DNA from: Escherichia coli
Lineage (GTDB): Bacteria > Pseudomonadota > Gammaproteobacteria > Enterobacterales > Enterobacteriaceae
Assembly: GCF_003334305.1 (NCBI RefSeq)
Contig: NZ_QOWS01000021.1
Length of the DNA: 64,000 bases
Strand: one strand, 5' to 3'
The notes under the pieces are model-generated. The model did no database searches. It was not told where the DNA came from and worked only from the letters and a program-made list of their open reading frames with translations. This document shows, piece by piece, positions 452 to 54,149 of the stretch. Position numbers and translations under genes: made by a program. Position 1 is the stretch's first letter. Each line of letters opens with the position of its first letter.

Positions 452-2689
452 GTGGACTGGCTTCTTGATGTTTTTGCAACCTGGCTCTACGGCTTAAAAG
501 TAATCGCGATAACGTTAGCGGTCATCATGTTCATCAGCGGGCTGGACGATTTTTTTATTGATGTCGTCTACTGGGTACGCCGCATTAAACGCAAGTTGAG
601 TGTTTATCGCCGCTACCCGCGAATGAGTTACCGCGAACTGTATAAACCAGATGAAAAACCGTTAGCGATTATGGTTCCGGCGTGGAATGAAACGGGCGTC
701 ATCGGCAATATGGCCGAGCTGGCGGCGACCACGCTCGACTACGAAAACTATCATATCTTTGTTGGCACCTACCCCAACGACCCCGATACTCAACGTGATG
801 TTGACGAAGTGTGCGCTCGCTTTCCGAACGTGCATAAGGTAGTCTGCGCGCGTCCTGGTCCCACCAGCAAAGCCGACTGTCTGAACAACGTGCTGGACGC
901 CATCACCCAGTTTGAACGTAGCGCCAATTTCGCTTTTGCTGGTTTTATTCTGCATGACGCCGAAGATGTGATTTCACCGATGGAATTGCGTCTGTTCAAC
1001 TATCTGGTCGAGCGTAAAGATCTGATTCAGATCCCGGTGTATCCGTTCGAACGCGAATGGACGCACTTCACCAGCATGACTTACATTGATGAGTTTTCAG
1101 AGCTGCATGGCAAAGATGTTCCGGTGCGTGAAGCCCTCGCCGGACAAGTGCCCAGCGCAGGCGTCGGCACCTGTTTCAGCCGCCGCGCCGTGACCGCTCT
1201 GTTAGCTGACGGTGACGGTATTGCTTTCGACGTGCAGAGTCTGACTGAAGATTACGACATTGGTTTCCGCCTGAAAGAGAAAGGTATGACGGAAATTTTT
1301 GTCCGTTTTCCGGTGGTGGACGAAGCCAAAGAACGCGAGCAGCGCAAATTTTTACAGCACGCACGGACGTCAAACATGATCTGCGTGCGCGAATATTTCC
1401 CCGATACCTTTTCGACTGCAGTTCGACAAAAATCTCGCTGGATCATCGGCATTGTTTTCCAGGGCTTTAAAACCCACAAATGGACCTCCAGCCTGACGCT
1501 GAACTACTTTCTCTGGCGCGACCGCAAAGGGGCAATCAGTAACTTTGTCAGCTTCCTCGCGATGCTGGTGATGCTCCAGCTTTTGCTGTTGCTGGCGTAT
1601 GAAAGTTTGTGGCCCAATGCCTGGCATTTCCTTTCTATTTTTAGCGGCAGCGCATGATTAATGACCCTGCTGTGGCTAAACTTTGGCTTGATGGTTAACC
1701 GCATCGTGCAGCGGGTGATTTTCGTCACTGGCTACTACGGTCTGACGCAGGGGCTGCTATCTGTCCTGCGTCTTTTCTGGGGCAACCTGATTAACTTCAT
1801 GGCCAACTGGCGCGCGCTAAAACAGGTACTTCAACACGGCGATCCACGTCGCGTCGCGTGGGATAAAACAACGCATGACTTCCCCAGCGTGACTGGCGAT
1901 ACCCGCTCGTTGCGCCCGTTAGGCCAAATTCTGCTGGAAAATCAGGTCATCACTGAAGAACAACTCGATACAGCACTGCGTAATCGCGTCGAAGGTCTAC
2001 GCCTGGGCGGTTCAATGCTGATGCAGGGGCTGATTAGCGCCGAGCAGCTGGCACAGGCGCTGGCAGAGCAAAACGGCGTGGCGTGGGAATCCATCGATGC
2101 CTGGCAGATCCCGTCCTCGCTGATTGCCGAAATGCCAGCCTCCGTAGCGCTGCATTATGCAGTACTGCCGCTGCGTCTGGAAAATGATGAGTTAATTGTC
2201 GGCAGTGAAGATGGTATTGACCCGGTTTCGCTGGCGGCCCTGACGCGTAAAGTCGGACGCAAAGTGCGTTACGTCATTGTTCTGCGGGGACAAATTGTCA
2301 CGGGGTTACGTCACTGGTATGCACGCCGACGCGGTCACGATCCGCGGGCAATGTTGTACAATGCGGTTCAGCATCAGTGGCTCACGGAACAGCAGACCGG
2401 TGAAATCTGGCGGCAATATGTGCCGCATCAGTTCCTGTTCGCCGAAATACTGACCACGCTCGGTCATATTAATCGTTCAGCAATTAACGTGTTGTTATTG
2501 CGCCATGAACGCAGTTCTCTGCCGCTCGGCAAGTTTTTGGTCACCGAAGGCGTTATCAGCCAGGAAACGTTGGATCGCGTCCTGACAATTCAACGCGAAT
2601 TACAAGTTTCGATGCAATCACTATTACTCAAAGCAGGTTTAAACACAGAACAGGTTGCGCAACTGGAGTCCGAAAATGAAGGAGAATAA
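452..2689 (+). pseudogene. nfrB: NfrB-like GT2 glycosyltransferase (phage N4 adsorption protein B) interrupted by an in-frame TGA at 1655-1657
   Basis: ORFs 452-1657 and 1661-2689 are in the same frame, separated only by a stop and one codon; the joined translation reads as one continuous NfrB-like protein. Confidence 0.7.
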
Positions 2690-7483: not shown

Positions 7484-7528
7484 AGGGCAAAGCGGAAACG
7501 GATAAGACGGGCATAAATGAAGAAGAAA

Positions 7529-7573
7529 TGGCGCGCCCTGCAGGATTCGAACCTGCGGCCCACGACTTAGAAG
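7529..7573. repeat. attL: 45-bp partial copy of the tRNA-Arg 3' end (pauD-like remnant)
   Basis: tggcgcgccctgcaggattcgaacctgcggcccacgacttagaag is identical to 54073-54117; coordinates approximate. Confidence 0.85.
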
Positions 7574-7995: not shown

Positions 7996-8949
7996 ATGCG
8001 GGCGAAACTTCTGGGAATAGTTCTGACAACCCCTATTGCGATCAGCTCTTTTGCTTCTACCGAGACTATATCGTTTACTCCTGACAACATAAATGCGGAC
8101 ATTAGTCTTGGAACTCTGAGCGGAAAAACAAAAGAGCGCGTTTATCTAGCTGAAGAAGGAGGCCGAAAAGTCAGTCAACTCGACTGGAAATTCAATAACG
8201 CTGCAATTATTAAAGGTGCAATTAATTGGGATTTGATGCCCCAGATATCTATTGGGGCTGCGGGCTGGACTACTCTCGGCAGCCGAGGTGGCAATATGGT
8301 CGATCAGGACTGGATGGATTCCAGTAACCCCGGAACCTGGACAGATGAAAGTAGGCACCCTGATACACAACTCAATTATGCCAACGAATTTGATCTGAAT
8401 ATCAAAGGCTGGCTCCTCAACGAACCCAATTACCGCCTGGGACTCATGGCCGGATATCAGGAAAGCCGTTATAGCTTTACAGCCAGAGGTGGTTCCTATA
8501 TCTACAGTTCTGAGGAGGGATTCAGAGATGATATCGGCTCCTTCCCGAATGGAGAAAGAGCAATCGGCTACAAACAACGTTTTAAAATGCCCTACATTGG
8601 CTTGACTGGAAGTTATCGTTATGAAGATTTTGAGCTAGGTGGCACATTTAAATACAGCGGCTGGGTGGAAGCATCTGATAACGATGAGCACTATGACCCA
8701 GGAAAAAGAATCACTTATCGCAGTAAAGTCAAAGACCAAAATTACTATTCTGTTGCAGTCAATGCAGGTTATTACGTAACACCTAACGCAAAAGTTTATG
8801 TTGAAGGCGCATGGAATCGGGTTACGAATAAAAAAGGTAATACTTCACTTTATGATCACAATGATAACACTTCAGACTACAGCAAAAATGGTGCAGGCAT
8901 AGAAAACTATAACTTCATCACTACTGCTGGTCTTAAGTACACCTTTTAA
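7996..8949 (+). CDS. ompT: Outer membrane protease OmpT (omptin), 317 aa
   Basis: Full-length match to the OmpT sequence as recalled (MRAKLLGIVLTTPIAISSFA…TTAGLKYTF). Confidence 0.95.
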   Translation: MRAKLLGIVLTTPIAISSFASTETISFTPDNINADISLGTLSGKTKERVYLAEEGGRKVSQLDWKFNNAAIIKGAINWDLMPQISIGAAGWTTLGSRGGNMVDQDWMDSSNPGTWTDESRHPDTQLNYANEFDLNIKGWLLNEPNYRLGLMAGYQESRYSFTARGGSYIYSSEEGFRDDIGSFPNGERAIGYKQRFKMPYIGLTGSYRYEDFELGGTFKYSGWVEASDNDEHYDPGKRITYRSKVKDQNYYSVAVNAGYYVTPNAKVYVEGAWNRVTNKKGNTSLYDHNDNTSDYSKNGAGIENYNFITTAGLKYTF

Positions 8950-10803: not shown

Positions 10804-11109
10804 TCAATATACATTTTGCACCTTCGAGATAGTAATGACTGTTACTGTAACATGAGTTACAAACAGCTTCATACCCAGAGCTACTGATGTATCAACTCGA
10901 TTCAACAATACCCGATATTTATTCCATGCCTCCAGCAACGATCTTTCTTCCTCCGTTGCGATTTCCAGATCTACAGCATCCTGCAGTGGCGCAATATACT
11001 CACTGAATTCCTGGATGTAGAACTGTGTGGTGACGGTCTTCCAGCCATTCGGCTCCTGCTGTATCGAAGCATACCAGGCTATTTCAATATCGCTATGCTG
11101 CGGCAGCAT
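10804..11109 (-). pseudogene. Tail fibre assembly protein C-terminal remnant (tfaX-like)
   Basis: Translation contains the conserved Tfa motif [37 protein letters not shown] with no N-terminal domain; about 110 nt is a direct repeat of 13690-13800. Confidence 0.7.
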
Positions 11110-12931: not shown

Positions 12932-13522
12932 ATGTCTCGAATTTTTGCTTACTGTCGGATATCAACGCTGGATCAGACCATCGAAAATCAACGCAGGGAA
13001 ATCGAAAGTGCAGGTTTTAAAATCAAACCTCAGCAAATAATCGAAGAACACATTAGCGGCTCAGCAGCAACCAGTGAGCGTCCTGGTTTTAACCGGTTGC
13101 TTGCTCGCCTGAAATGTGGTGATCAATTGATTGTGACAAAACTGGATCGCCTTGGTTGTAATGCAATGGATATCAGGAAAACAGTGGAACAACTGACCGA
13201 AACAGGTATCAGAGTGCATTGCTTAGCATTGGGGGGCATTGACCTGACCAGTCCAACAGGAAAAATGATGATGCACGTAATTTCAGCAGTCGCTGAATTT
13301 GAACGAGACCTTTTACTTGAACGCACTCATTCCGGGATAGTAAGAGCCCGCGGCGCAGGGAAACGTTTTGGTCGACCACCTGTGTTAAATGAAGAACAGA
13401 AACAGGTGGTATTCGAACGAATTAAGTCAGGTGTAAGTATAAGTGCCATTGCCCGGGAATTCAAAACCTCGCGGCAAACCATTTTAAGAGCCAAAGCAAA
13501 ACTTCAGACACCTGACATATAA
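12932..13522 (+). CDS. pin: Serine recombinase / DNA invertase (Pin/Gin/Hin family), 196 aa
   Basis: N-terminal resolvase catalytic motif (YCRISTLDQ) and C-terminal HTH; strong similarity to e14 Pin as recalled. Confidence 0.9.
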
Positions 13523-13619: not shown

Positions 13620-14195
13620 CTACGGCAGTGCTGGCCATTCAATATCCTGTGCAGTTGACGTATCAACACGGTTCAGCAACACCCGATACTTTTTCCAGGC
13701 TTCCAGCAATGAGGTTTCTTCCTCCGTTGCGATTTCCAGATCTACAGCATCCTGAAGTGGCGCAATATGCTCACTGGCTACCTGCATCAGGCTGTTTTTT
13801 GTTTCTTCCGCCTCTCGGATCCGGAACAGTTTTTCTGCTTCTGCATCTTTCACCCAGGCTGTGCCGTTCCACTTCTGAAACTCCCCTTCCGGCGATAACC
13901 AGGTAACATTTTCCGGTAACGGACCGAGTTCAGAAATAAATAACGCGTCCCCTGACGCTACGTCATAAACCGTTTTACCCCGATGGTCTTCAACGAGATG
14001 CCACGATGCCTTATCACTGTTGAAAACAGCCACAAAGCCAGCAGGAATATCTGGTGGTGCAATATCGGTACTGTTTGCTGGCAGACCTGTATGAGGCGGA
14101 ATATATGCGTCACCTTCACCAATAAATTCATTAGTTCCGGCCAGCAGATTATAAATTTTTATGGTCCGTGGTTGTTCACTCATTCTGAATGCCAT
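13620..14195 (-). CDS. tfa: Tail fibre assembly protein Tfa, 191 aa
   Basis: Conserved Tfa C-terminal motif; immediately downstream of the side tail fibre gene. Confidence 0.85.
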
Positions 14196-17029
14196 TATGC
14201 AAGCCTCACAATATAGTTAAATGCGATGTTTTTGACGGTGTTTTCCGCGTTACCAGCAGCGTTAACGGTGATGGTGTGTCCATGTGAACCAATCGCAACG
14301 GAGTGCGTATGAGCACCAATACCGACAGTATGCGCGTGTGCACCTGCAGATGCTGCTGTGCCGGACAGTGAATGGCTATGATTACCATCTGTACTGGTAT
14401 TCGCTAACCACCCCGTAGACATACCTACTGAGCCTTGTACACCCCAGGTATTTTGACCTGAGCTTGTATAACCATATTGATAAGTATCTTTAAAAACACT
14501 GGGGTTAAATCGACGGCCATCTCTATGGCTGTGATTACCAGCTGCATTCGTGCTGCCACTTAAACTATGGGTATGCGCACCAGTGTTATTCGTGGATTTA
14601 GTGCCGTAATCAAACGACGATGTGGTTTTCGTCCCCAAATCCGTACTGGATGCGCTGGCGCTGTGGGTATGCGATTTAATGCCGTCCTGTTCCTGAGACA
14701 ATACGGCCCGACCACTGGCAGGTTTGCCCTTAATCGTCCAGCCACGCATATCAGGGATCACGCCTGACGGATAAGCGGCTGCAAGTTTCGGGTATGCAGA
14801 TTTGTCAAAAGTCTGCCCCTGCATCAGGGCATAGCCAGACGGAACGGTATCTGATGGCCACGGGATTGGTGCGCCAGGCGGATAAAACTGCTCTGATGGC
14901 GTATAGAGTGAATAAACTGTACCGTCCGTTAACCCTTCCGGCTTATTAGCAGAATATGCTGGTGACGTATGAATCGTCACGCTGGCATTACTGGTATAAT
15001 CCCATTGAATATTTACACCAGTCGCATAATTTCCGATTGCAACGTAAATATCGTAAGTATCACCAGATGTATTGACCCAGGCAAAATTTGTAAACCCTGT
15101 CGATGTGCGCTGCCATAAAGCACCAGTAATCCCCTTCGGATTACCATTACCTGCACGTAAAACAAGTTCAGATATACCTGCCTGTTGAGGTGACCCCACG
15201 TTAAATCCAGCGCCACCAATCAACGTAATTGAAACAACAGAACTCGCCTGTGGCATGGTTACCGTTGCTAATTTGAACCAACCAGCACCACCGCTGAATG
15301 ACATTGTTGTTGAGTTAAGCGTACCAATATCTTTCGGCGTCAGTGTTATATCCGCTGAAAGCGCCTTACCATTCACCTTACGGGCAGAAGGTACCCGACC
15401 ATTCGCATTGTCATTAGCTGCTTTCACTGCTTTCGGTGTCGCAGCAAGCGTTTCAGATGTGCTGTTGGTTGCACTACTGAGCTGGACAATTCCTTTTTGT
15501 GCTGTCGTAGCGTCCTGTGCGGTGTATTTCCCGTTAGCCAGGTCATACGCGGCCTTAACGGCTTTTGGCGTTGCCGCCTGTGACTCGGAAGTGCTGTTGG
15601 TCGCACTGCTGAGCTGTACTATCCCCTTTTTCGTCGTGCTCGCATCCTCAAGCGCCACGGCGGATGCAATATCCTCTGCCCGTTTTGCTGCTGTCTCGGC
15701 GCGCGTTGCCGCGGATTCCGCCGTACTTTTGCTCTGTGCTGCCGCTGCCGCACTGCCAGCAGCCTCTGTCGCCTTCGTGGATGCCGTCGTGGCGCTGCCC
15801 CTCGCTGCTGACGCCTGTCTGGTCGCCTCATCTTTTGAAGCAGACGCAGATGATGCCGATGACGCCGCCGAACTGGCGGACGATGCGGCAGCCGTTTTTG
15901 AGGATTCTGCGCTGGTTTCCGACGCTTTCGCGTTCGTTTCGGATGTCTTCGCTGCGGAAGCAGACCTCGCTGCTGCGCTGGCCTGTTCAGTGGCTTCGCC
16001 AGCCTTCGTTGTGGCTGTTGAAGCGGATGATGCGGCGCTTTCTGCCGATTTTCCGGCGGCGGTGGCACTGACTGCTGCCTCCTCTGCCTTAATGGACGCC
16101 TCACGGGCCGATGATGCAGCTGCTGTCTCAGAGTCTGCCGCAGCTGAGGCGCTCTGTTCCGCTGCCGTTTCAGAAGACCTGGCATTCGTCTCGGACGTTT
16201 TTGCCGCCTTCACGGAATTTCCTGCCGCCGTTGCCGAGGAGGCTGCACTGCTGGCGCTTGTGGAGGCGTTCGTTTCTGATGATTTTGCCGCCTCTTTGGA
16301 GGCCGCCGCATCTCTGGCTGAAGTGGCGGCTTCTGACGCTTTCGTCGTCGCAGTGGATGCAGAAGTGGCTGCTGATTTTTGTGACGCTGCAGCATTCGTT
16401 TCTGACGTTTTCGCCGCACCGGCACTGGTGGCCGCCGCGCTTTTTGAGGACTCTGCAGCGGCAGCACTTTTTGATGCTTCAGTGGCCTTTGTTGATGCCG
16501 TTCCTGCGCTGGAAGACGCCTCCTGAGCCGAAGTCGCGGCCTGTCCGGCTGACGTGCTGGCTGCACGCGCTGAGCCTGCAGCATCAGTCGCATGGGTTGC
16601 CGCCTCACGGGCAGATGTGCCGGCATCACTGGCTGACTTCTTCGCGGCTGCCGTGTTCTGTGCCACCGCGGACGCGTTACGCGTCACCTCTTCCACCATC
16701 AGTTCAAAACGGCGCAGAGCCTCCGGACGGGCATCATCCTCCGTCATGGCACCGAGAAAATCATTCAGCGTACCGGGTCGGGAATCTTCATACACGGTGA
16801 TGGTCCCGGCATGTGACGGCGGGAATCCTTCCACCAACAGAATAACGCTGTACTGACCGTACTCAACGTCCATGCTGTAACGCCCGGCTTCATCCGGATT
16901 TTCTGAGGCCAGCGTGTTCACCACCACCGTGGTGCTGTTACGTTTTGCTTTCAGCTGGATTGTGCAGTTCTGTACCGGTTTTCCTGTGCCGTCTTTCAGT
17001 ACACCTGAAATCTTTACTGCCATATTCAC
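14195..17029 (-). CDS. stf: Side tail fibre protein (Stf-like), 944 aa, with long Ala/Ser/Thr-rich repeats
   Basis: Repeated KTSETNA-type units, His-rich C-terminal tip (HTHS…HSHS…HAHT…HGHT); lies between lom and tfa. Confidence 0.85.
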
Positions 17030-17087
17030 CCCACAAAAAAGCCCGCCTGAACCGGCGGGCTGTCATAACACTGTGTTACCTGGCTAA

Positions 17088-17687
17088 TCAGAACTTATAA
17101 CCGACACCCACGATGAAACCGTCAGTGCGCCAGTCGCCACTGCCGGAGCCTTCATAAGCAATATCAATGGCCACGGATTCGGTCGGGTTAAACTGCACGC
17201 CAGCTCCCCACGCCAGAGACGTGTTGCTGTGGCGACCGTCATCACTTCCGGTCAGCACGTCGTGCGTTTTCCCCTTGTTGTCAGTTACGCGGAGATAATC
17301 CCCGGAGAAAGTCGACACACGGCTGTAAGCCACACCCGCCATCGCATACGCGCTGAACCATTCATTCACGCGCACAGACGGCCCCGCCATTACGCTGAAC
17401 CAGCGGTTACGAACGGAATCTTCATGCCAGCGAGTATCGCTGTAATGGGTCAGTTGGCGATTCTTGTCTCCTGCATAGCTGAATGACGTCACCAGCCCCA
17501 GCGTATCCGTAAACTCATAACGGTATTTCACGTTAATCCCGTTCAGATCATCACTGCCGGGAACGTTGGTCCGGGCATGAAGATACCCCGCGCTCAGCGT
17601 GGACTGATGTTCAGACGCCCATGCAGGCGCACCGGATACGGCCAGACAAATGGCTGCGGACAAAATGGCGGCACAAACTTTACGCAT
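17088..17687 (-). CDS. lom: Lom outer membrane protein (Ail/Lom family), 199 aa
   Basis: Signal peptide plus beta-barrel-like sequence ending …VGVGYKF; directly downstream of J as in lambda. Confidence 0.85.
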   Translation of the reverse strand: MRKVCAAILSAAICLAVSGAPAWASEHQSTLSAGYLHARTNVPGSDDLNGINVKYRYEFTDTLGLVTSFSYAGDKNRQLTHYSDTRWHEDSVRNRWFSVMAGPSVRVNEWFSAYAMAGVAYSRVSTFSGDYLRVTDNKGKTHDVLTGSDDGRHSNTSLAWGAGVQFNPTESVAIDIAYEGSGSGDWRTDGFIVGVGYKF

Positions 17688-17757
17688 AATTACCTCTCGC
17701 TTTTCTGCAATAAAAAAGGCGTCATTCCTGACGCCATTTATTGGGGTTATAAATATT

Positions 17758-20700
17758 TCAACGAATACTGATGCCGGAAGCCGCTTTTTTGGTCACAATC
17801 ACCGTACAGTCGGTGATATTGCCTGCCCCCTGATTGCCTTTCTGGAAAATCTTAAACTCCAGAGTGACGCTACCACCACCACTAGGCATATCAATAACTG
17901 CACTGTAACTACCGGGAATGGCCCCTTTAGTTTCTCTGGATGCGATTAATACGCCGTTTTTGCGAACTTCAAAACCATAACCCGTGTATCGCGTGCCTCC
18001 TGGGTTATTTCCGCTCCCCGGATCGTCATACGCTATACCGTTAAAAATAATGGGCGGAATAATAATCTGGCGGTCAAAGTTATGATCATCGCTGATGGTG
18101 ACTGTAACCGTACCGTTTGGTGTTTCCGTGTTACCCCACGTACCGACTTTTTTCGGGAAGGCTTTTGATACAGCTTTAACGAAATCCCCTCTGACCTGGG
18201 TCGCCTCCAGCATGCCCTTAATCGTACAGTTTTCATTTACCGTGACATTGTTGAGCGTTCCTGAGTTCGCATTCACACTACCACTGATATCCGCATTTTT
18301 AGCGGTCAGCTTTCCGTCTGATGTCAGGGAAAATACCGGAGGACTGCCACCGCTGGTAATGGTGGGGGCTGTCAGGCGCTTCAGGAACACGTCGTTCATG
18401 AATATCTGGTTGCCCTGCGCCACAAACATCGGCGTTTCATTCCCGTTTGCCGGGTCAATAAACGCGATACGATTGGCGGCAACCAGAAACTGGCTCAGCT
18501 TGCCTTCCTCCGTGTCCTCCATGCTGAGGCCAATACCCGCGACATAATGTTTGCCGTCTTTGGTCTGCTCAATTTTGACGCCCCACATAGCATTCCATTT
18601 ATCGTTAGCGTCCTTCCACTCTTTCGAAAACTCATCCAGTCTGCTGGCGTTATCCTCCGTCAGGTCGACTTTTTCCAGCAGCTCTTTACCGAGATGGGAT
18701 TCGGTTATCTTGCCTTTGAAAAAATCCAGGTAACCTTCCGCATCATCGCTCGCCCGACCGACGGCCTCCACGAATGCCGATTTGCCAACGGTGTTCACAC
18801 TGCGGATATAAAAGTAATAATCATGGCCCGGTTTGATATTGATACTGGCGGCTATCCAGTACAGCCCCGTGCCAAGGTAGCGGGCTGTGGTTTCAACCTG
18901 CCTGATATCGGTAATCCGCGTTTCCGAGAACCAGAACTCAAACTGTACCGTCGGATCATAAACCGCAAGATGCGGCGTGGCGGTTATCTGAAAATAGCCC
19001 GGCGTCAGCTCAATCCGCGACGGCGCTGCCGGGGCGGCAATCCGGAACGATACCGACGCCGGATCGCCCTGCTGTCCCCGGGCATTTACCGCCCGGACCG
19101 TCAGCGTGTAACGCCCCAGCGCCAGTTGCCTGAAGCGGTAAGTGGTTTCCGTCGTCCGGGCCGTGCTGACCAGCCGCTCACTGCCGTCATCGGCGGCCAC
19201 GGTCAGGCGAAGCATAAAGCTCACGCCCTTCACCACCTTCGGCGTATCCCAGCGCGCCAGCACCTGGTATTCCCCGCTGTCTGCGGTGACTTCGGCGGTC
19301 AGGTGCTGCACCGCTGGCGGCGTGACACCATTCACCGTGCCGCTCTGGTCGCCGTCAAAGTGCGCCCCGTTATCCACGATGGCTTCTTTTTCCGGTACAT
19401 GCTGCACGGCGGTGATGGCATACGTGCCGTCGTCGTTCTCACGGATACTCACGCAGCGGAACAGGCGCTGGCGCAGCGTCGGCAGCTTCAGCCCCCACAC
19501 GCTGTATTCAGCAACGCCGTCAGGAACACGGCTCACTTTCACCTTCACGCCGTCGGTGACGGACTGAACCTCCACGCTGACCGGATTGCCACTTCCGTCA
19601 ACCAGGCTTATCAGCGTGGTACCGGAGGATGGCAGCGTGATTTCACGGTCGAGCGTCAGCGTCCGGGTCTGGCTGTTTACCGCCAGCACGCGACCACCGG
19701 TGCTGATACCGGCATAGTCATCATCGCAGATTTCAATGACATCGCCCGGTACATGGCGAAGCCCTTCAGCACCCACGCTGAAGTCCACGGTCTGCGTTTC
19801 CAGCAGTTCCGTTTTAATCAGCCACAGCCCGGCGCGGTGCGCCTGCCCCCGGCTGGTACAGCCAAAGGCATCCATCTTCGTGACGTTACGACCGTAACGG
19901 GCAATGGCCTGCGCATCTTCAACAAGCTCTGTCGCCGTCTCCCAGCCGTTATCCGGGTCAATCCAGTTCACCTCAACGGCATTATGGCGGTCCTTCAGGG
20001 CGCTGAAACTGTAGCGGAACGGCGCGCCATCATCCGGCATCACCACATTACTGCGGTTATAGGTCCACACCTTATCTGATGGTCGGTCCTGCACGAACGT
20101 CAGCGTCTGCCCGTTCCATACCGGCATACAGCGCATCGCCGAGCAGAAATCACTGAGCACATCCCACGCCTTACGCTGCGTGGTCAGGTAGGCATTACAG
20201 GTGATGCGCGGCTCCGTGCCGCCAAAACCGTCCGGCACTGACTGGTCGCAGTACTGGCCGATGACATACAGCGCCCATTTATCCACATCCGCCGCACCAA
20301 GACGTTTCCCCATGCCGTAGCGCGGATGGGTCAGCATATCCCACAGACACCAGGCCATGTTGTTGCTGTATGCCGGTTTAAACGTTCCGTCCCAGATACC
20401 GCTGTATTGCCGCGTCTGCGGGTTATAGTTCGACGGCACCTGCAGAATGCGCCCGCGCAGATGATAATTACGGCTCACCTGCTGGCTGCCGAACTGCTCC
20501 GAATCCACCTGCACGCCGACCAGTGCCGTGTTCGGGTAGCCCTGTTTCACATCGATGATTTCGGTGTATGACGACCAGAGCGTTTTGTTCTGCAGCTGGT
20601 CTGTGGTGCTGTCCGGCGTCATCCTGCGCATCCGGATATTAAACGGGCGCGGCGGCAGGCTACCCACCACCACCGAGGCCAGATACTGCGAGGTGGTTTT

Positions 20701-21171
20701 GCCCTTAATGGTGATGTCTTTTTCCGTCACCCAGCCACCGTTACGTTGTATCTGAACCAGCAGACGGACTTCCGACGGATTCCTGTCACCCTTTGAGGTG
20801 GTTTCCACCAGTGCCTGTACACCGAAGGTAAAGCGCAGACGGTCGATGTTTGCAGACGTAATGGTGCGGGTGATCGGCGTGTCATATTTCACTTCCGTAC
20901 CCAGCACCGTCTCGGAGCCGGAGGATTCAAACCCCTCCGGCGGTGTCTGCTCCTGCTCACCGGCACGGAACACCACCGTGACACCGGAGATGTTGGTATT
21001 CCCCTCAGTGTCCAGCACCGGCGTACTGTTCAGCAGCACGCTTTTTAATCCATCCACCGGACCTTCAACCGGCCCTTCGCTGATGGCATCGATCACACTC
21101 AGCAACTGCGTGGACTTCAGGTTGTCCTTCGCTTCGCGCGGGGTATGCCCCTTACTGCTTCCTTTACCCAT
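17758..21171 (-). CDS. J: Tail tip / host specificity protein J, 1137 aa
   Basis: Near-identical to lambda J over about the first 980 residues as recalled; the C-terminal ~150 aa diverge. Confidence 0.95.
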
Positions 21172-37066: not shown

Positions 37067-37427
37067 ACATCCCGGTTTCTTCCACCATCGCACCGGAAAA
37101 GCGACTATGAGGGTAACCCTGCGTCTGTCAGCACAGTAAAACCCGGTGTGCATCGTTTTTGATTATTCCCGCACACTCACGCAGAAGGAATTCCCCGTCG
37201 GGCTACGGTCATGGTTAATGCGGGAATACGGCGACGATACAGCGCAGCTAAAAGGGTAATGGACAGATAGAGCGGTTTATTTCATTCCACAGGATTCTGA
37301 GTGCCCCCCCCTCCTCCAATAGGCTGAGCATCCACCTATATAGTTTTAATTTTCATCAATCCATTTAACTATCGTTTAATTGTTGTCACATAGGATTCTG
37401 CCGTTTTTAACAATGCAGGATAATAAG

Positions 37428-37721
37428 ATGAAAAAAATGTTGTTTTCTGCCGCTCTGGCAATGCTTATTACAGGATGTGCTCAACAGACGTTTACTGTTG
37501 GAAACAAACCGACAGCAGTAACACCAAAGGAAACCATCACCCATCATTTCTTCGTTTCGGGAATTGGACAGGAGAAAACTGTTGATGCAGCCAAAATTTG
37601 TGGCGGCGCAGAAAATGTTGTTAAAACAGAAACCCAGCAAACATTCGTAAATGGATTTCTCGGTTTTATTACTTTAGGCATTTATACTCCGCTGGAAGCG
37701 CGTGTGTATTGCTCACAATAA
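37428..37721 (+). CDS. bor: Bor lipoprotein (serum-resistance-associated), 97 aa
   Basis: MKKMLFSAALAMLITGCAQQ lipobox; matches lambda Bor; opposite orientation to the lysis genes. Confidence 0.85.
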   Translation: MKKMLFSAALAMLITGCAQQTFTVGNKPTAVTPKETITHHFFVSGIGQEKTVDAAKICGGAENVVKTETQQTFVNGFLGFITLGIYTPLEARVYCSQ

Positions 37722-37752: not shown

Positions 37753-38214
37753 CTATCTGCACTGCTCATTAATATACTTCTGGGTTCCTTCCAGTTGTTT
37801 TTGCATAGTGATCAGCCTCTCTCTGAGGGTGAAATAATCCCGTTCAGCGGTGTCTGCCAGTCGGGGGGAGGCTGCATTATCCACGCCGGAGGCGGTGGTG
37901 GCTTCACGCACTGACTGACAGACTGCTTTGATGTGCAACCGACGACGACCAGCGGCAACATCATCACGCAGAGCATCATTTTCAGCTTTCGCATCAGCTA
38001 ACTCCTTCGTGTATTTTGCATCGAGCGCAGCAACATCACGCTGACGCATCTGCATGCCAGTAATTGCCGCGTTCGCCAGCTTCAGTTCTCTGGCATTTTT
38101 GTCGCGCTGGGCTTTGTAGGTAATGGCGTTATCACGGTAATGATTAACAGCCAATGACAGGCAGACGATGATGCAGATAACCAGAGCGGAGATAATCGCG
38201 GTTACTCTGCTCAT
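37753..38214 (-). CDS. Rz: Spanin inner-membrane subunit Rz, 153 aa
   Basis: Matches lambda/DLP12 Rz; follows the endolysin gene. Confidence 0.85.
37812..37994 (-). CDS. Rz1: Spanin outer-membrane lipoprotein Rz1, embedded in Rz in the +1 frame
   Basis: 60-aa ORF with a lipobox (VVGC) and proline-rich sequence, fully nested within Rz. Confidence 0.75.
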
Positions 38215-38708
38215 TGTTTCCCCCACAAACAGACTTCACGCTCAATCTCACGGCGAGTCATCAGTCCTTTCCATTGATTACCGCCAGCGTATGTCCAGCG
38301 CTGTAGCTGATCACATGCGCCTTTAATATCACCCTGGTTTATTTTGCGAAGAAGCGTCGATGTTCTGAAATTGCCAGCACCCACGTTGTAGACGAACGAG
38401 TAAAGAGCGCCGCGCGTTGTTTCCGGTATATCGACTTTGATGTACCGGTTAATTTGTCTGGCGACAGTTGCAAGGTCTTTATTCAGGAGGGCTTTGCACT
38501 CTGCTTCGGTATACGTTTTACCGGGAATGATGTCTTTTCCTGTATGCCCGTAACATACAGTCCATACACCAACTATGTCTTTGTAAGGATTATGTCTCAC
38601 ACCTTCCAGACCATCGTTACCACTTGGGCCAGTGATTAACACAGATGCTATAGCAATAGCCCCGCCACCAATAGCAGCAGCAACAGCTTTTCGTAATGAT
38701 GGAGGCAT
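38211..38708 (-). CDS. rrrD: SAR endolysin (phage-21-type lysozyme, RrrD-like), 165 aa
   Basis: N-terminal signal-anchor-release segment ([16 protein letters not shown]) plus T4-lysozyme-like domain; matches DLP12 RrrD as recalled. Confidence 0.85.
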
Positions 38709-39496: not shown

Positions 39497-40579
39497 ATGA
39501 AAAAATTAACAGTGGCAATTTCTGCTGTAGCTGCATCAGTACTGATGGCGATGTCTGCTCAGGCAGCTGAAATTTATAATAAAGACAGTAACAAGCTGGA
39601 TCTGTACGGGAAAGTTAATGCTAAGCACTACTTCTCCTCTAATGATGCAGATGATGGTGATACTACTTATGCCCGTCTTGGCTTCAAAGGTGAAACCCAA
39701 ATCAACGATCAACTGACTGGTTTCGGTCAGTGGGAATATGAATTCAAAGGCAACCGCGCTGAATCTCAAGGTTCCTCCAAAGATAAAACCCGTCTTGCCT
39801 TCGCTGGCCTGAAATTCGGTGACTACGGCTCCATCGATTATGGCCGTAACTACGGTGTAGCATACGATATTGGTGCATGGACCGACGTTCTGCCAGAATT
39901 CGGTGGCGATACCTGGACCCAAACAGATGTATTCATGACTGGTCGCACCACAGGTGTTGCAACTTATCGTAACAACGACTTCTTTGGTCTGGTTGATGGC
40001 CTGAACTTTGCAGCTCAGTATCAGGGCAAAAATGACCGAAATGAAGTAACTGAAGCTAATGGCGATGGTTTCGGTTTCTCAACTACTTATGAGTATGAAG
40101 GATTCGGCGTGGGTGCAACCTATGCTAAATCTGATCGCACTAATAATCAGGTTATCTACGGTAACAACGGTCTGAATGCTTCTGGTCAAAATGCTGAAGT
40201 ATGGGCAGCTGGTCTGAAATATGATGCGAACAACATCTATCTGGCCACCACCTATTCTGAAACCCAGAACATGACTGTTTTTGGTAATAACCATATTGCC
40301 AACAAAGCACAAAACTTCGAAGCTGTTGCACAATATCAGTTCGACTTCGGCCTGCGTCCATCCGTTGCTTACCTGCATTCTAAAGGAAAAGACTTGGGTG
40401 TTTGGGGTGATCAGGACCTGGTTGAATATGTTGATGTAGGTGCAACCTATTACTTCAACAAAAATATGTCCACTTTTGTTGACTACAAAATCAACCTGAT
40501 TGATAAGAGCGATTTCACGAAAGCATCTGGCGTTGCTACCGATGATATCGTTGCTGTAGGTATGGTTTACCAGTTCTAA
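39497..40579 (+). CDS. nmpC: Prophage-encoded general porin (NmpC/Lc, OmpC/OmpF family), 360 aa, apparently intact
   Basis: Signal peptide, porin beta-barrel sequence ending …VGMVYQF; located between Q and the lysis genes as in DLP12. Confidence 0.9.
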
Positions 40580-47242: not shown

Positions 47243-48382
47243 ATGGCAGCGGTTGAATTTCAATTGTCTAGGAAGATGATTGATTGGATAGCAAATTCTC
47301 AAGGAGTTTCTATCGAAACTCTTGCTGACCAAGTCATGCCCAAAAAGATTAATAAATTTCTTAACGGAGTGGTAAGTAAATCCGCAGCAGAAAAACTGGC
47401 AAAAATTGGAGGAATCCCTTTCGGTTTTTTATTTCTTGAAACGCCACCAACTCCAGCCAAACCCAAGATCCCTGACTTAAGGCAAGCTATAAATAGCCGT
47501 GAGTTAGGAAAAGATTTTTTTGATGTTTACTATGATATAGAATATAAACTTGAGTGGTACAAAGACTATTTAAGAGAAAATGGTAATGATGATCCACTCG
47601 ATTTTATTGGTAAATTTAAATTTAATAGAAAATTAAATTATAAGGTTGTTGCTACAGACATAGCAAACACAATACATTTTGATATACAAAAAGAGATAAA
47701 AAATGTCACTTTTGAGAGCTATTTTTCTAAAGTGGCAAAACTAATAGAAGACACTGGCGTATTAGTTTTCAAGAATGGTGTTGTGGGTAATAATAATAAA
47801 AGAAAACTTGACACGCGAGAGTTTCGTGGTTTCTGTATATCTGATAGCGTTGCTCCGATCATTTTTGTAAATAGCTCGGACGCGTTATCTGCGCAGGTAT
47901 TTACATTATTTCATGAGGTGGCTCATCTTTGGCTTGGAGTCGATGGAGTCTCTGGGTGGGACACAGAAAAAAACATAGAATCTTTTTGTAATAAAGTTGC
48001 TGCTGAAATCTTAATGCCTGATAATCTCTTCAAATCTTTCTGGCTTAATGCATCCAGCGATAATAATTATTATCGAGTAAAAGAGGTTTCTAAGTTATTT
48101 AAGGTTAGTGATTTCGCTTGTGCAATCAAAGCGTTACAATTAGATTTGATAGAAAGAAACACTTTGGAGATAATTAAAGATCAAGCTTACAATAAGCCCA
48201 AAAAAGAATCCAATGGTGGTTCTTTCTTTAACACATTACCTGTTCGTAACAGTCCAAAACTTACGAATATAATAATTTCCAAAGCAATGTCTCAACAATT
48301 ACCATTAAGGGAAGCAGGCGTACTGCTAAATGTAAAAGCAGATACAGTTGTTGAATTTTATAAAAAACGAGAATCTCTATGA
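47243..48382 (+). CDS. HTH-fused ImmA/IrrE-family (M78/DUF955-like) zinc metallopeptidase, 379 aa
   Basis: N-terminal XRE-like HTH; HEXXH motif (FHEVAHLW); AGGTGA SD; AT-rich; directly downstream of cI. Confidence 0.7.
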   Translation: MAAVEFQLSRKMIDWIANSQGVSIETLADQVMPKKINKFLNGVVSKSAAEKLAKIGGIPFGFLFLETPPTPAKPKIPDLRQAINSRELGKDFFDVYYDIEYKLEWYKDYLRENGNDDPLDFIGKFKFNRKLNYKVVATDIANTIHFDIQKEIKNVTFESYFSKVAKLIEDTGVLVFKNGVVGNNNKRKLDTREFRGFCISDSVAPIIFVNSSDALSAQVFTLFHEVAHLWLGVDGVSGWDTEKNIESFCNKVAAEILMPDNLFKSFWLNASSDNNYYRVKEVSKLFKVSDFACAIKALQLDLIERNTLEIIKDQAYNKPKKESNGGSFFNTLPVRNSPKLTNIIISKAMSQQLPLREAGVLLNVKADTVVEFYKKRESL

Positions 48383-48891
48383 TTCATAATGGAAAATTCT
48401 TAATTGATAGTAATGTCTTCATAGAGGCAAAAAACTTTGCATATAACTTCAATTATTGCAAAATATTTTGGGATTTTCTTCTCGCTTTACACATTAATGG
48501 TCTGATTTATAGCATTAATGCTGTAAAAAAAGAACTATGTGCAAAAGATGATCCATTGTGTAAATGGATTAAAGAAGAGTTACCATCATCATTCTTCGAA
48601 GATGAGCATAGTTCAATAGAAAATTATGCAAAGTTAATAAATTGGTCAACTAAATTAGATGTTACCGAAAAGGCAAAGTTTGATTTTGCAAGCCATGAAA
48701 AAGCAGATGCTTTTTTAATAGCCCATGCGATGACACATGGATATACTATTATTACCCATGAGAAACCATCCGGTGGCAAACCTAAAAAAAGAATAATGAT
48801 CCCGGATGCTGCTGCTTCTCACGGCGTTAAGACATTAACACTATATGAATTTCTTCCAAGATACGCTAGTCATAATTTTTCTTTGAAATAA
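48379..48891 (+). CDS. PIN-like (possibly DUF4411-family) putative nuclease/effector, 170 aa
   Basis: ATGA overlap with the upstream gene; N-terminal strand-Asp motif (FLIDSNVFIEA) typical of PIN folds; fold assignment is tentative. Confidence 0.5.
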   Translation: MIHNGKFLIDSNVFIEAKNFAYNFNYCKIFWDFLLALHINGLIYSINAVKKELCAKDDPLCKWIKEELPSSFFEDEHSSIENYAKLINWSTKLDVTEKAKFDFASHEKADAFLIAHAMTHGYTIITHEKPSGGKPKKRIMIPDAAASHGVKTLTLYEFLPRYASHNFSLK

Positions 48892-52695: not shown

Positions 52696-53038
52696 GGCCT
52701 GTCAGTTTCTTAAGATATCCAGACCAACCGCCACCAACTGGATACGAACAGGCCGCCTACAGGCAACACGTAAAGATCCAACCAAGCCAAAATCTCCTTA
52801 CCTCACAACACGGCAAGCCTGCATTGCGGCGCTTCAGTCTCCGCTGCATACTGTCCAGGTGAGCGCGGGTGATGGCATAACAGAGGAAAGAAAATGTCAC
52901 TCTTCCGCAGAAATGAAATATGGTATGCCTCGTATTCGCTCCCGGGCGGGAAACGAATTAAGGAATCTCTTGGCACAAAGGACAAGCGGCAAGCTCAGGA
53001 GTTGCACGACAAGCGAAAAGCAGAACTCTGGCGAGTAG
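52667..53038 (+). CDS. xis: Putative excisionase (Xis-like HTH protein); overlaps the int start
   Basis: ORF 52637-53038; internal Met [31 protein letters not shown] has an HTH; lies immediately upstream of int. Confidence 0.45.
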
Positions 53039-54057
53039 AAAAGCTAGGGGATTTACCTGATGTCACTTTTGAAGAGGCCTGCCTAAGATGGCTTGAGGAA
53101 AAAGCTGATAAAAAATCTCTCGATTCAGATAAAAGCCGGATTGAGTTCTGGCTTGAACATTTTGAGGGTATAAGGCTTAAAGATATCTCGGAGGCAAAGA
53201 TTTACTCTGCTGTAAGCAGAATGCATAACAGAAAGACGAAAGAAATATGGAAACAGAAAGTTCAGGCCGCCATCAGGAAAGGTAAAGAACTGCCTGTTTA
53301 TGAACCAAAGCCAGTATCAACTCAGACAAAGGCAAAGCATCTTGCCATGATAAAGGCCATTCTCCGTGCTGCAGAACGCGACTGGAAGTGGCTGGAAAAA
53401 GCGCCTGTCATCAAGATACCAGCGGTCAGAAACAAGCGAGTCAGATGGCTGGAAAAGGAGGAAGCAAAACGCCTTATTGATGAGTGCCCCGAACCACTGA
53501 AATCTGTCGTCAAGTTTGCGCTGGCAACTGGTCTGAGAAAGTCGAACATCATAAATCTGGAATGGCAACAAATCGACATGCAGCGACGAGTTGCCTGGGT
53601 GAATCCAGAAGAGAGCAAATCAAACCGCGCCATTGGTGTGGCGCTGAACGATACCGCCTGTAAAGTGTTGCGTGATCAAATAGGCAAGCATCACAAATGG
53701 GTGTTTGTACATACCAAGGCGGCTAAGCGAGCAGATGGAACATCAACGCCTGCGGTCAGGAAGATGCGCATCGACAGCAAGACATCATGGCTATCAGCTT
53801 GTCGTCGTGCAGGAATTGAAGATTTCCGTTTCCATGACCTCAGACACACCTGGGCAAGCTGGCTGATTCAGTCAGGCGTCCCATTATCAGTGCTTCAGGA
53901 AATGGGCGGATGGGAGTCCATAGAAATGGTTCGTAGGTATGCTCACCTTGCGCCTAATCATTTGACAGAGCATGCGAGGAAAATAGACGACATTTTTGGT
54001 GATAATGTCCCAAATATGTCCCACTCTGGAATTATGGAGGATATAAAGAAGGCGTAA
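52894..54057 (+). CDS. intD: Tyrosine integrase (IntD-like), 387 aa
   Basis: Matches DLP12 integrase as recalled; C-terminal catalytic region (…[15 protein letters not shown]…RYAHL); adjacent to tRNA-Arg. Confidence 0.9.
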
Positions 54058-54072
54058 CTGATTGAATTGTAA

Positions 54073-54117
54073 TGGCGCGCCCTGCAGGATTCGAACCTGC
54101 GGCCCACGACTTAGAAG
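54073..54117. repeat. attR core (3' 45 nt of argU), identical to 7529-7573
   Basis: Direct repeat seen in sequence. Confidence 0.85.
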
Positions 54118-54149
54118 GTCGTTGCTCTATCCAACTGAGCTAAGGGCGC
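54073..54149 (-). tRNA. argU: tRNA-Arg (anticodon UCU), argU; prophage attachment site
   Basis: Reverse complement reads GCGCCCTTAGCTCAGTTGGATAGAGCAACGACCTTCTAAGTCGTGGGCCGCAGGTTCGAATCCTGCAGGGCGCGCCA (77 nt, cloverleaf-compatible, CCA end); coordinates approximate. Confidence 0.9.

Follow-up and report, generated by a model that had tools for sequence, protein, structure and literature searches.

The 64,000-nucleotide stretch of Escherichia coli DNA analyzed here (the window) holds a complete lambda-like prophage of ~46.6 kb at argU, and within it two intact accessory genes, lom and bor/iss. An earlier note on this DNA had reported both as intact genes of lambda that, together with ompT and a porin gene, give the host at least four prophage-borne envelope proteins. 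Most of this is borne out: lom and bor are uninterrupted open reading frames (ORFs) at the lambda positions that match their family models end to end, and the genes for all four proteins (Lom, Bor, OmpT and the porin) are intact inside the att repeats. The attribution to lambda holds for family and genomic slot but not for the alleles, with lom belonging to the type found in phage 434 and Stx phages and bor being closer to plasmid iss than to lambda bor. Both are already known and very common annotated accessory genes, in an argU prophage that is itself common.

The coordinates of the prophage boundaries, the two genes and their neighbors are collected in Table 1. The integration site, argU, is also that of DLP12. 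Judging from the annotation of the near-identical E. coli strain A7, the prophage has the full lambdoid set of head, tail, lysis, replication, immunity and recombination genes. The immunity region also encodes, beside the repressor gene, a DUF4411 protein of 170 aa and a 379-aa metallopeptidase of the ImmA/IrrE family (47243..48891, +), a pair that could be an accessory defence or toxin–antitoxin-like module. Elsewhere in the window, nfrB (452..2689, +), the gene for the phage N4 adsorption/c-di-GMP-activated glycosyltransferase, is split by an in-frame stop codon (1658..1660) into same-frame ORFs of 401 and 342 aa; the A7 RefSeq annotation gives it as 'nrfB' and as a pseudogene with an internal stop.

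Table 1 Features of the argU prophage, the lom and bor/iss genes and their surroundings in the 64,000-nucleotide window
Feature	Position	Strand	Details
att copy, distal	7527..7573	+	Exact 47-bp direct repeat of the argU 3' part; blastn 47/47, E = 4e-22
ompT, omptin outer-membrane protease	7996..8949	+	NCBIfam NF008222, 708 bits (cutoff 537), 1–317/317; RefSeq A7 annotation
stf, side tail fibre gene	14195..17023	-	Downstream of lom; ATG at 17023 taken from the lambda alignment
Terminator-like hairpin and T-run	17032..17061 (hairpin 17061..17040)	-	Directly 3' of lom, before the stf ribosome-binding site
lom	17088..17687	-	199-aa ATG ORF; predicted Ail/Lom-family outer-membrane β-barrel precursor
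Shine–Dalgarno GAGAGG of lom	17693..17698	-	5 nt before ATG; read from sequence; conserved in lambda
Terminator-like hairpin and T-run	17711..17735	-	Directly 3' of the J stop, upstream of lom
J, central tail fibre/host-specificity gene	17758..21171	-	88% amino acid identity to lambda J overall
Shine–Dalgarno AGGA of bor	37417..37420	+	7 nt before ATG; read from sequence
bor/iss	37428..37721	+	97-aa predicted outer-membrane lipoprotein precursor
Rz (i-spanin) with embedded Rz1 (37812..37994)	37753..38214	-	Convergent with bor, as in lambda
OmpC-family porin (NmpC/Lc/OmpD-like)	39497..40579	+	NCBIfam NF007841 OmpC-subfamily, 515 bits (cutoff 484)
Integrase gene	52894..54057	+	387 aa; named intD in strain A7, whose region is 100% identical
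att copy, proximal	54071..54117	+	Overlaps the 3' part of argU, adjoins the integrase gene
tRNA-Arg(tct) argU	54073..54149	-	Sole tRNA in the window

The coordinates of lom are the exact ends of its ORF with the stop codon counted, and the frame runs without internal stop or frameshift. The encoded protein matched the Pfam model Ail_Lom over its full length (PF06316; residues 1–199 on model positions 1–199 of 199, E = 2.2e-123, 409.9 bits), as it did PHROG 108, 'Lom outer membrane protein' (1–199/199, E = 1e-110). Scores against two NCBIfam equivalogs fell below their cutoffs, at 117 for 'resistance to complement killing' (cutoff 258) and 99 for OmpX (cutoff 176), which places Lom in the wider family as neither an Rck-type nor an OmpX protein. 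Based on a rule of basic N terminus, hydrophobic core and A-x-A motif, the protein begins with a Sec signal peptide, MRKVCAAILSAAICLAVSGAPAWA, followed by SEHQ (cleavage between AWA and SEHQ), and it ends in YKF, giving an aromatic C terminus. The mature chain aligned end to end with the solved structures of OmpX (residues 3–148) and Ail (residues 2–157) at E ~1e-18, and the predicted fold is an eight-stranded β-barrel.

The top match of Lom among solved structures was a chain named 'Outer membrane protein lom' (9wso_C). Entry 9wso contains this 206-aa protein, equal in length to lambda Lom, as two chains; structure searches with J and Stf did not return the entry, and a literature text search by its code gave only unrelated papers. 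The G+C content of lom (56%) is like that of the tail genes, the prophage as a whole being at 50%. lom and bor each occur as a single copy within the window (tblastn), and an Rfam search returned no RNA family in the region of either gene.

For bor, too, the coordinates are the exact ORF ends with the stop codon counted, and there is no internal stop or frameshift. The 97-aa frame from ATG is part of a 113-aa ORF that opens at a TTG 16 codons upstream; we preferred the ATG because it yields a lipoprotein signal peptide and is the annotated start in lambda. The protein covered the whole of the Pfam model Lambda_Bor (PF06291; 1–75/75, E = 4.4e-30) and of PHROG 260, 'Bor-like outer membrane protein' (1–97/97, E = 1e-58), and identical copies are named 'iss, increased serum survival lipoprotein' in RefSeq. 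NCBIfam returned no family for Bor at E values up to 0.001; given the strong Pfam and PHROGs matches, this is a gap in the model library and not counter-evidence. No solved structure was related to Bor by sequence. A regular-expression match located the lipobox ITGC at residues 14–17, with the break before Cys17, and the +2 residue is Ala, not Asp. The +2 residue governs the sorting of lipoproteins to the outer membrane (the Lol rule), and Bor is predicted to be sorted there.

Downstream of bor we found only a weak five-pair hairpin (37780..37794). The ~60 bp upstream of bor are partly conserved among lambda, plasmid iss and the window, and are near-identical between plasmid and window. The G+C content of bor is 41%, compared to 50% for the prophage, and is also low in ompT (43.5%) and the porin gene (44%). 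The adjacent Rz/Rz1 genes are intact in the window (37753..38226, -), whereas the RefSeq copies in strain A7 are annotated as frameshifted or partial. Over this 19-kb stretch the two sequences otherwise match at 100.0%, with a two-base length difference; the discrepancy in Rz/Rz1 could be genuine or could stem from a homopolymer error of the A7 assembly.

The other two envelope genes, ompT and the porin gene, both gave full-length scores above curated cutoffs. The porin gene is flanked by the Q antiterminator gene and the lysis genes, and is 100% identical at the DNA level to that of the porin-carrying phage ev243; the name NmpC appeared only as the annotation of a phage match at 89.7% identity (ev017). 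Presumably the Lc porin of PA-2 and NmpC of DLP12 are comparable lambdoid-phage porins. In phage PA-2, the porin made by the prophage takes the place of OmpC and keeps out phages that depend on OmpC, and by analogy the porin of the window, in combination with a J of the phage 434 type (see below), could act in the same way.

Between the distal att copy and the tail fibre genes lie ompT, a 494-aa alpha/beta hydrolase, a SAM methyltransferase, ynaM/ynfT, ydfK and pinR. This arm also contains a tail fibre assembly remnant (10804..11109, -), partial in the A7 annotation and ~2.5 kb beyond the intact tail fibre assembly gene tfa. Its presence points to leftovers, in the arm proximal to ompT, either of an older prophage or of an invertible tail-fibre segment. 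The Pin-type serine invertase gene pinR (12932..13522, +) adjoins the tail fibre assembly gene (13620..14195, -), which is the usual arrangement of a host-range inversion switch. Wholly within that tail fibre assembly ORF is a match to the Rfam candidate small RNA IS009 (13654..13852, -; 227 bits, gathering score 117).

The lom gene, together with its own downstream terminator hairpin, forms a discrete cassette of ~670 bp, or 'moron'. The boundaries come from a junction alignment of the window with phage ev207, in which J runs directly into stf: ev207 shares the 3' end of J and the post-J hairpin with the window but is without lom, and its J stop codon, hairpin and T-run are followed by the ribosome-binding site and start codon of stf. 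In the window the cassette begins just past the post-J T-run, comprises GAGAGG, the ORF and the second hairpin with its T-run, and ends before the start of stf. Gene order on the minus strand (J, lom, stf) is that of lambda, with conserved flanks, and the lom–stf spacer including the post-lom hairpin is ~93% identical to its lambda counterpart. Predicted RNA folds were stable for both the post-J hairpin (-13.7 kcal/mol, z = -4.5) and the GC-rich post-lom hairpin (-18.3 kcal/mol, z = -3.5), with 0 of 200 shuffles folding as well as either. Two features by which morons are recognized are seen here, namely presence or absence at a precise junction between conserved neighbors, as the comparison with ev207 shows, and a factor-independent terminator of the gene's own downstream. 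A consensus scan found no sigma-70-like promoter upstream of lom or bor, and an inspection by eye for -35/-10 elements, which covered the surroundings of the J stop codon and the region upstream of bor, found none that was convincing; only ~20 nt separate the post-J hairpin from the lom ribosome-binding site. The anatomy is that of a classical moron, the promoter excepted.

In a sliding comparison, the window and lambda had 92–98% DNA identity on either side of a low-identity block of ~1.06 kb (~18250..17190), which runs from the final ~165 codons of J through the J–lom spacer into lom, taking in its first ~165 codons. Lambda-like sequence resumes with the final ~30 codons of lom and continues across the lom–stf spacer into the start of stf; the divergence of J from lambda is confined to ~residue 985 onward, that is, to its receptor-binding end. 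The 3' end of J plus lom is 96.0% identical in DNA to phage 434, whose receptor is OmpC, not LamB (PMC3509688). Because the receptor-binding end of J (17758..18250) is of this type, virions of the prophage probably use OmpC rather than LamB.

When the J end plus lom was used as a query, 205 phage records matched; in 67 of them the match spans 80% or more of the query, and both parts are present. For many Stx phages the match is limited to the stretch that starts 18 nt ahead of the J stop codon and runs through lom, meaning that they have another J end, and ev207 and Tritos match the J end only. A strict link between lom allele and J receptor type was considered and rejected, as all combinations, including J without lom, occur among the 205 records.

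The middle of stf (~15100..16700) encodes long Ala/Ser/Thr-rich repeats. Strain A7, otherwise identical, has a copy of 2961 nt, whereas the gene of the window measures 2829 nt when counted from the ATG at 17023; the difference of ~132 nt shows that the number of repeats varies between close relatives. The gene product has a match to T4 gp37 in its C-terminal part and, in its first 94 aa, one to a PDB chain that bears the name 'Tail fiber protein' (9e7m).

Both genes are widespread. DNA resembling lom was present in 4697 of 5426 complete E. coli genomes (median two copies, maximum 14) and DNA resembling bor in 3499 of the same 5426, including 664 plasmid locations; RefSeq annotates these matches as intact Ail/Lom and Iss genes. 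The genomes nearest to this prophage come from orangutan, dog, ibis, cattle and human faecal isolates. Nei–Gojobori dN/dS ratios, each resting on small counts of 13–19 substitutions, were 0.21 for lom versus BP-4795, 0.33 for bor versus lambda and 0.05 for bor versus plasmid iss. These values point to purifying selection, and thus to constraint, on both proteins.

In lambda, lom and bor are dispensable for plaque formation (PMC10695390) and are listed among the few genes expressed from the prophage (PMC7067206). Work cited in PMC3594210 connected lambda Bor with serum resistance and lambda Lom with adherence to buccal epithelial cells. In APEC O78-9, whose chromosomal iss lies in a putative prophage listed as argU-associated, plasmid iss alone was required for growth in serum, and overexpression of the chromosomal iss allele or of bor did not restore serum survival to the strain without plasmid iss (PMC4313913). 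The description 'virulence-associated', which the earlier note had used, is a label inherited from experiments with the lambda alleles, and its support for the present allele types is weak or negative.

The account we favor, with high confidence, is that a complete lambda-like argU prophage carries two intact and well-known accessory genes whose products work along the following lines. Lom would be exported through Sec as a precursor and inserted into the outer membrane as an OmpX/Ail-type barrel with an aromatic C terminus and longer extracellular loops. Its gene, a self-contained cassette of ribosome-binding site, ORF and terminator hairpin between the post-J terminator and the stf start, would be covered by read-through of the late transcript antiterminated by Q and be expressed at a low level in the lysogen, as reported for lambda. 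Bor would be made as a 97-aa lipoprotein precursor that its ITGC lipobox and +2 Ala direct to the outer membrane; bor is transcribed against the late operon, just beyond Rz/Rz1, and its expression would be independent of lytic transcription. Since the consensus scan found no promoter, independent transcription of lom and bor in the lysogen is assumed from lambda. At the cell surface, Lom may act in adhesion, in interference with phage adsorption or in both, and Bor/Iss may make a modest contribution to serum survival that depends on allele and strain. The adhesion experiment was done on lambda Lom, and the low identity of that protein to the Lom of the window would count against transferring the function.

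A possible reading, which we hold only tentatively, is that Lom mainly serves the phage: a surface change late in infection or in the lysogen would lower the adsorption of kin phages to infected cells, lysogens or their debris, amounting to superinfection exclusion or avoidance of wasted adsorption, with Lom abundant late in infection and scarce in lysogens. Overexpressed lambda Lom gave strong protection against lambda-vir and none against T7, and related eight-stranded barrel proteins blocked T7 adsorption; the authors proposed that, late in infection, Lom brings about exclusion or averts non-productive adsorption, and they stated that Lom expressed at the prophage level gives the lysogen no protection (PMC11888456). 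A comparative study described co-transfer of lom with the holin gene and strong expression in the lytic cycle (PMC9836094). The placement of lom between the adsorption genes J and stf is consistent with such a role, as is the exchange, relative to lambda, of the J receptor-binding end and most of lom as one block. However, the same lom occurs with other J ends in many Stx phages and the same J end without lom in ev207, and these separate combinations indicate that Lom is not tied to one receptor-binding type; in addition, the supporting experiment concerns the lambda allele. In a more specific version that we regard as doubtful, Lom of the 434 type would act as an adsorption-blocking self-exclusion protein against OmpC-dependent lambdoid phages, jointly with the OmpC-family porin of the prophage. 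If this were true, the prophage would remodel the outer membrane mainly to control phage traffic and not virulence, but a strict pairing of Lom with J is weakened by the independent recombination of lom and the J receptor-binding end.

It is distinctly unlikely that lom and bor are selectively neutral in this strain, passengers without measurable effect on host or phage that are intact owing to the young age of the prophage. The failure of the chromosomal iss allele and bor to show a serum phenotype in APEC O78-9 would fit such a history, as would the commensal or animal faecal origin (orangutan, dog, cattle) of the closest genomes, but dN/dS was well below 1 in three of three comparisons, each with 13–19 substitutions, and both genes have been kept very widely, in E. 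coli genomes as well as in functional phages. As for one or both frames being disrupted or mere remnants, we assign this almost no probability. Decay was seen only nearby, in the tail fibre assembly remnant (about 10805..11017) and the in-frame stop of nfrB, and offers no support at lom or bor themselves; the uninterrupted ORFs, the end-to-end family matches and the alignments, which are co-linear with lambda Lom, BP-4795 Lom, lambda Bor and plasmid Iss and contain no disrupted frame, already refute it.

Beyond correct annotation, the importance of these results is small, since lom and bor are among the commonest accessory genes of E. coli prophages. Because most genomes carry them, and so do the commensal and animal faecal isolates with the best matches to this prophage, the presence of lom plus bor/iss should not serve as a virulence marker. 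Greater caution is also advised by the difference between the lom allele here and the one studied in lambda, and by the published negative serum-survival result for the chromosomal bor/iss allele type. The clean cassette boundary revealed by ev207 makes lom a textbook example of moron insertion.

Among the small eight-stranded barrels of Enterobacteriaceae (OmpX, Ail, Rck and PagC), the solved OmpX and Ail are homologous to Lom across its whole mature chain. Compared to OmpX, Lom of the window is phage-borne and has extra residues at three positions, corresponding to longer loop insertions. Lambda Lom (NP_040601, 206 aa) belongs to the same family and occupies the same slot between J and stf, and the two proteins are identical over their last ~30 residues, with ribosome-binding site and downstream terminator conserved. 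Overall, however, they share only 45% amino acid identity, the protein of the window is seven residues shorter and megablast aligned just the last ~130 nt of the two genes. The differences are concentrated in three segments, at the places where the alignment with OmpX/Ail has its loop insertions, and indels are limited to loop regions. At this level of identity, the phenotypes of lambda Lom are probably not transferable on the grounds of high similarity. A far closer relationship was found with Lom of phage 434, Stx phages and BP-4795, which has the same length of 199 aa and the same slot after J; the lom ORF of BP-4795 differs from that of the window at 17 of 600 nt, which amounts to a handful of substitutions and no difference in kind.

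Lambda Bor (NP_597780) and DLP12 borD share with Bor of the window the length of 97 aa, the lipobox, the three cysteines, and the place and orientation after Rz/Rz1. Identity to lambda Bor is 91%, with nine substitutions located mostly in the signal peptide and at residues 25–32. Iss of a poultry IncF plasmid (ColV/IncF type) is more similar still, with 98% amino acid identity and only the differences F77L and L83F, and ~190 bp upstream of plasmid iss align closely with the window, the last ~40 bp before the ATG being identical. The two nonetheless differ in location, the bor/iss copy of the window being chromosomal, within a prophage, and the compared Iss being plasmid-borne.
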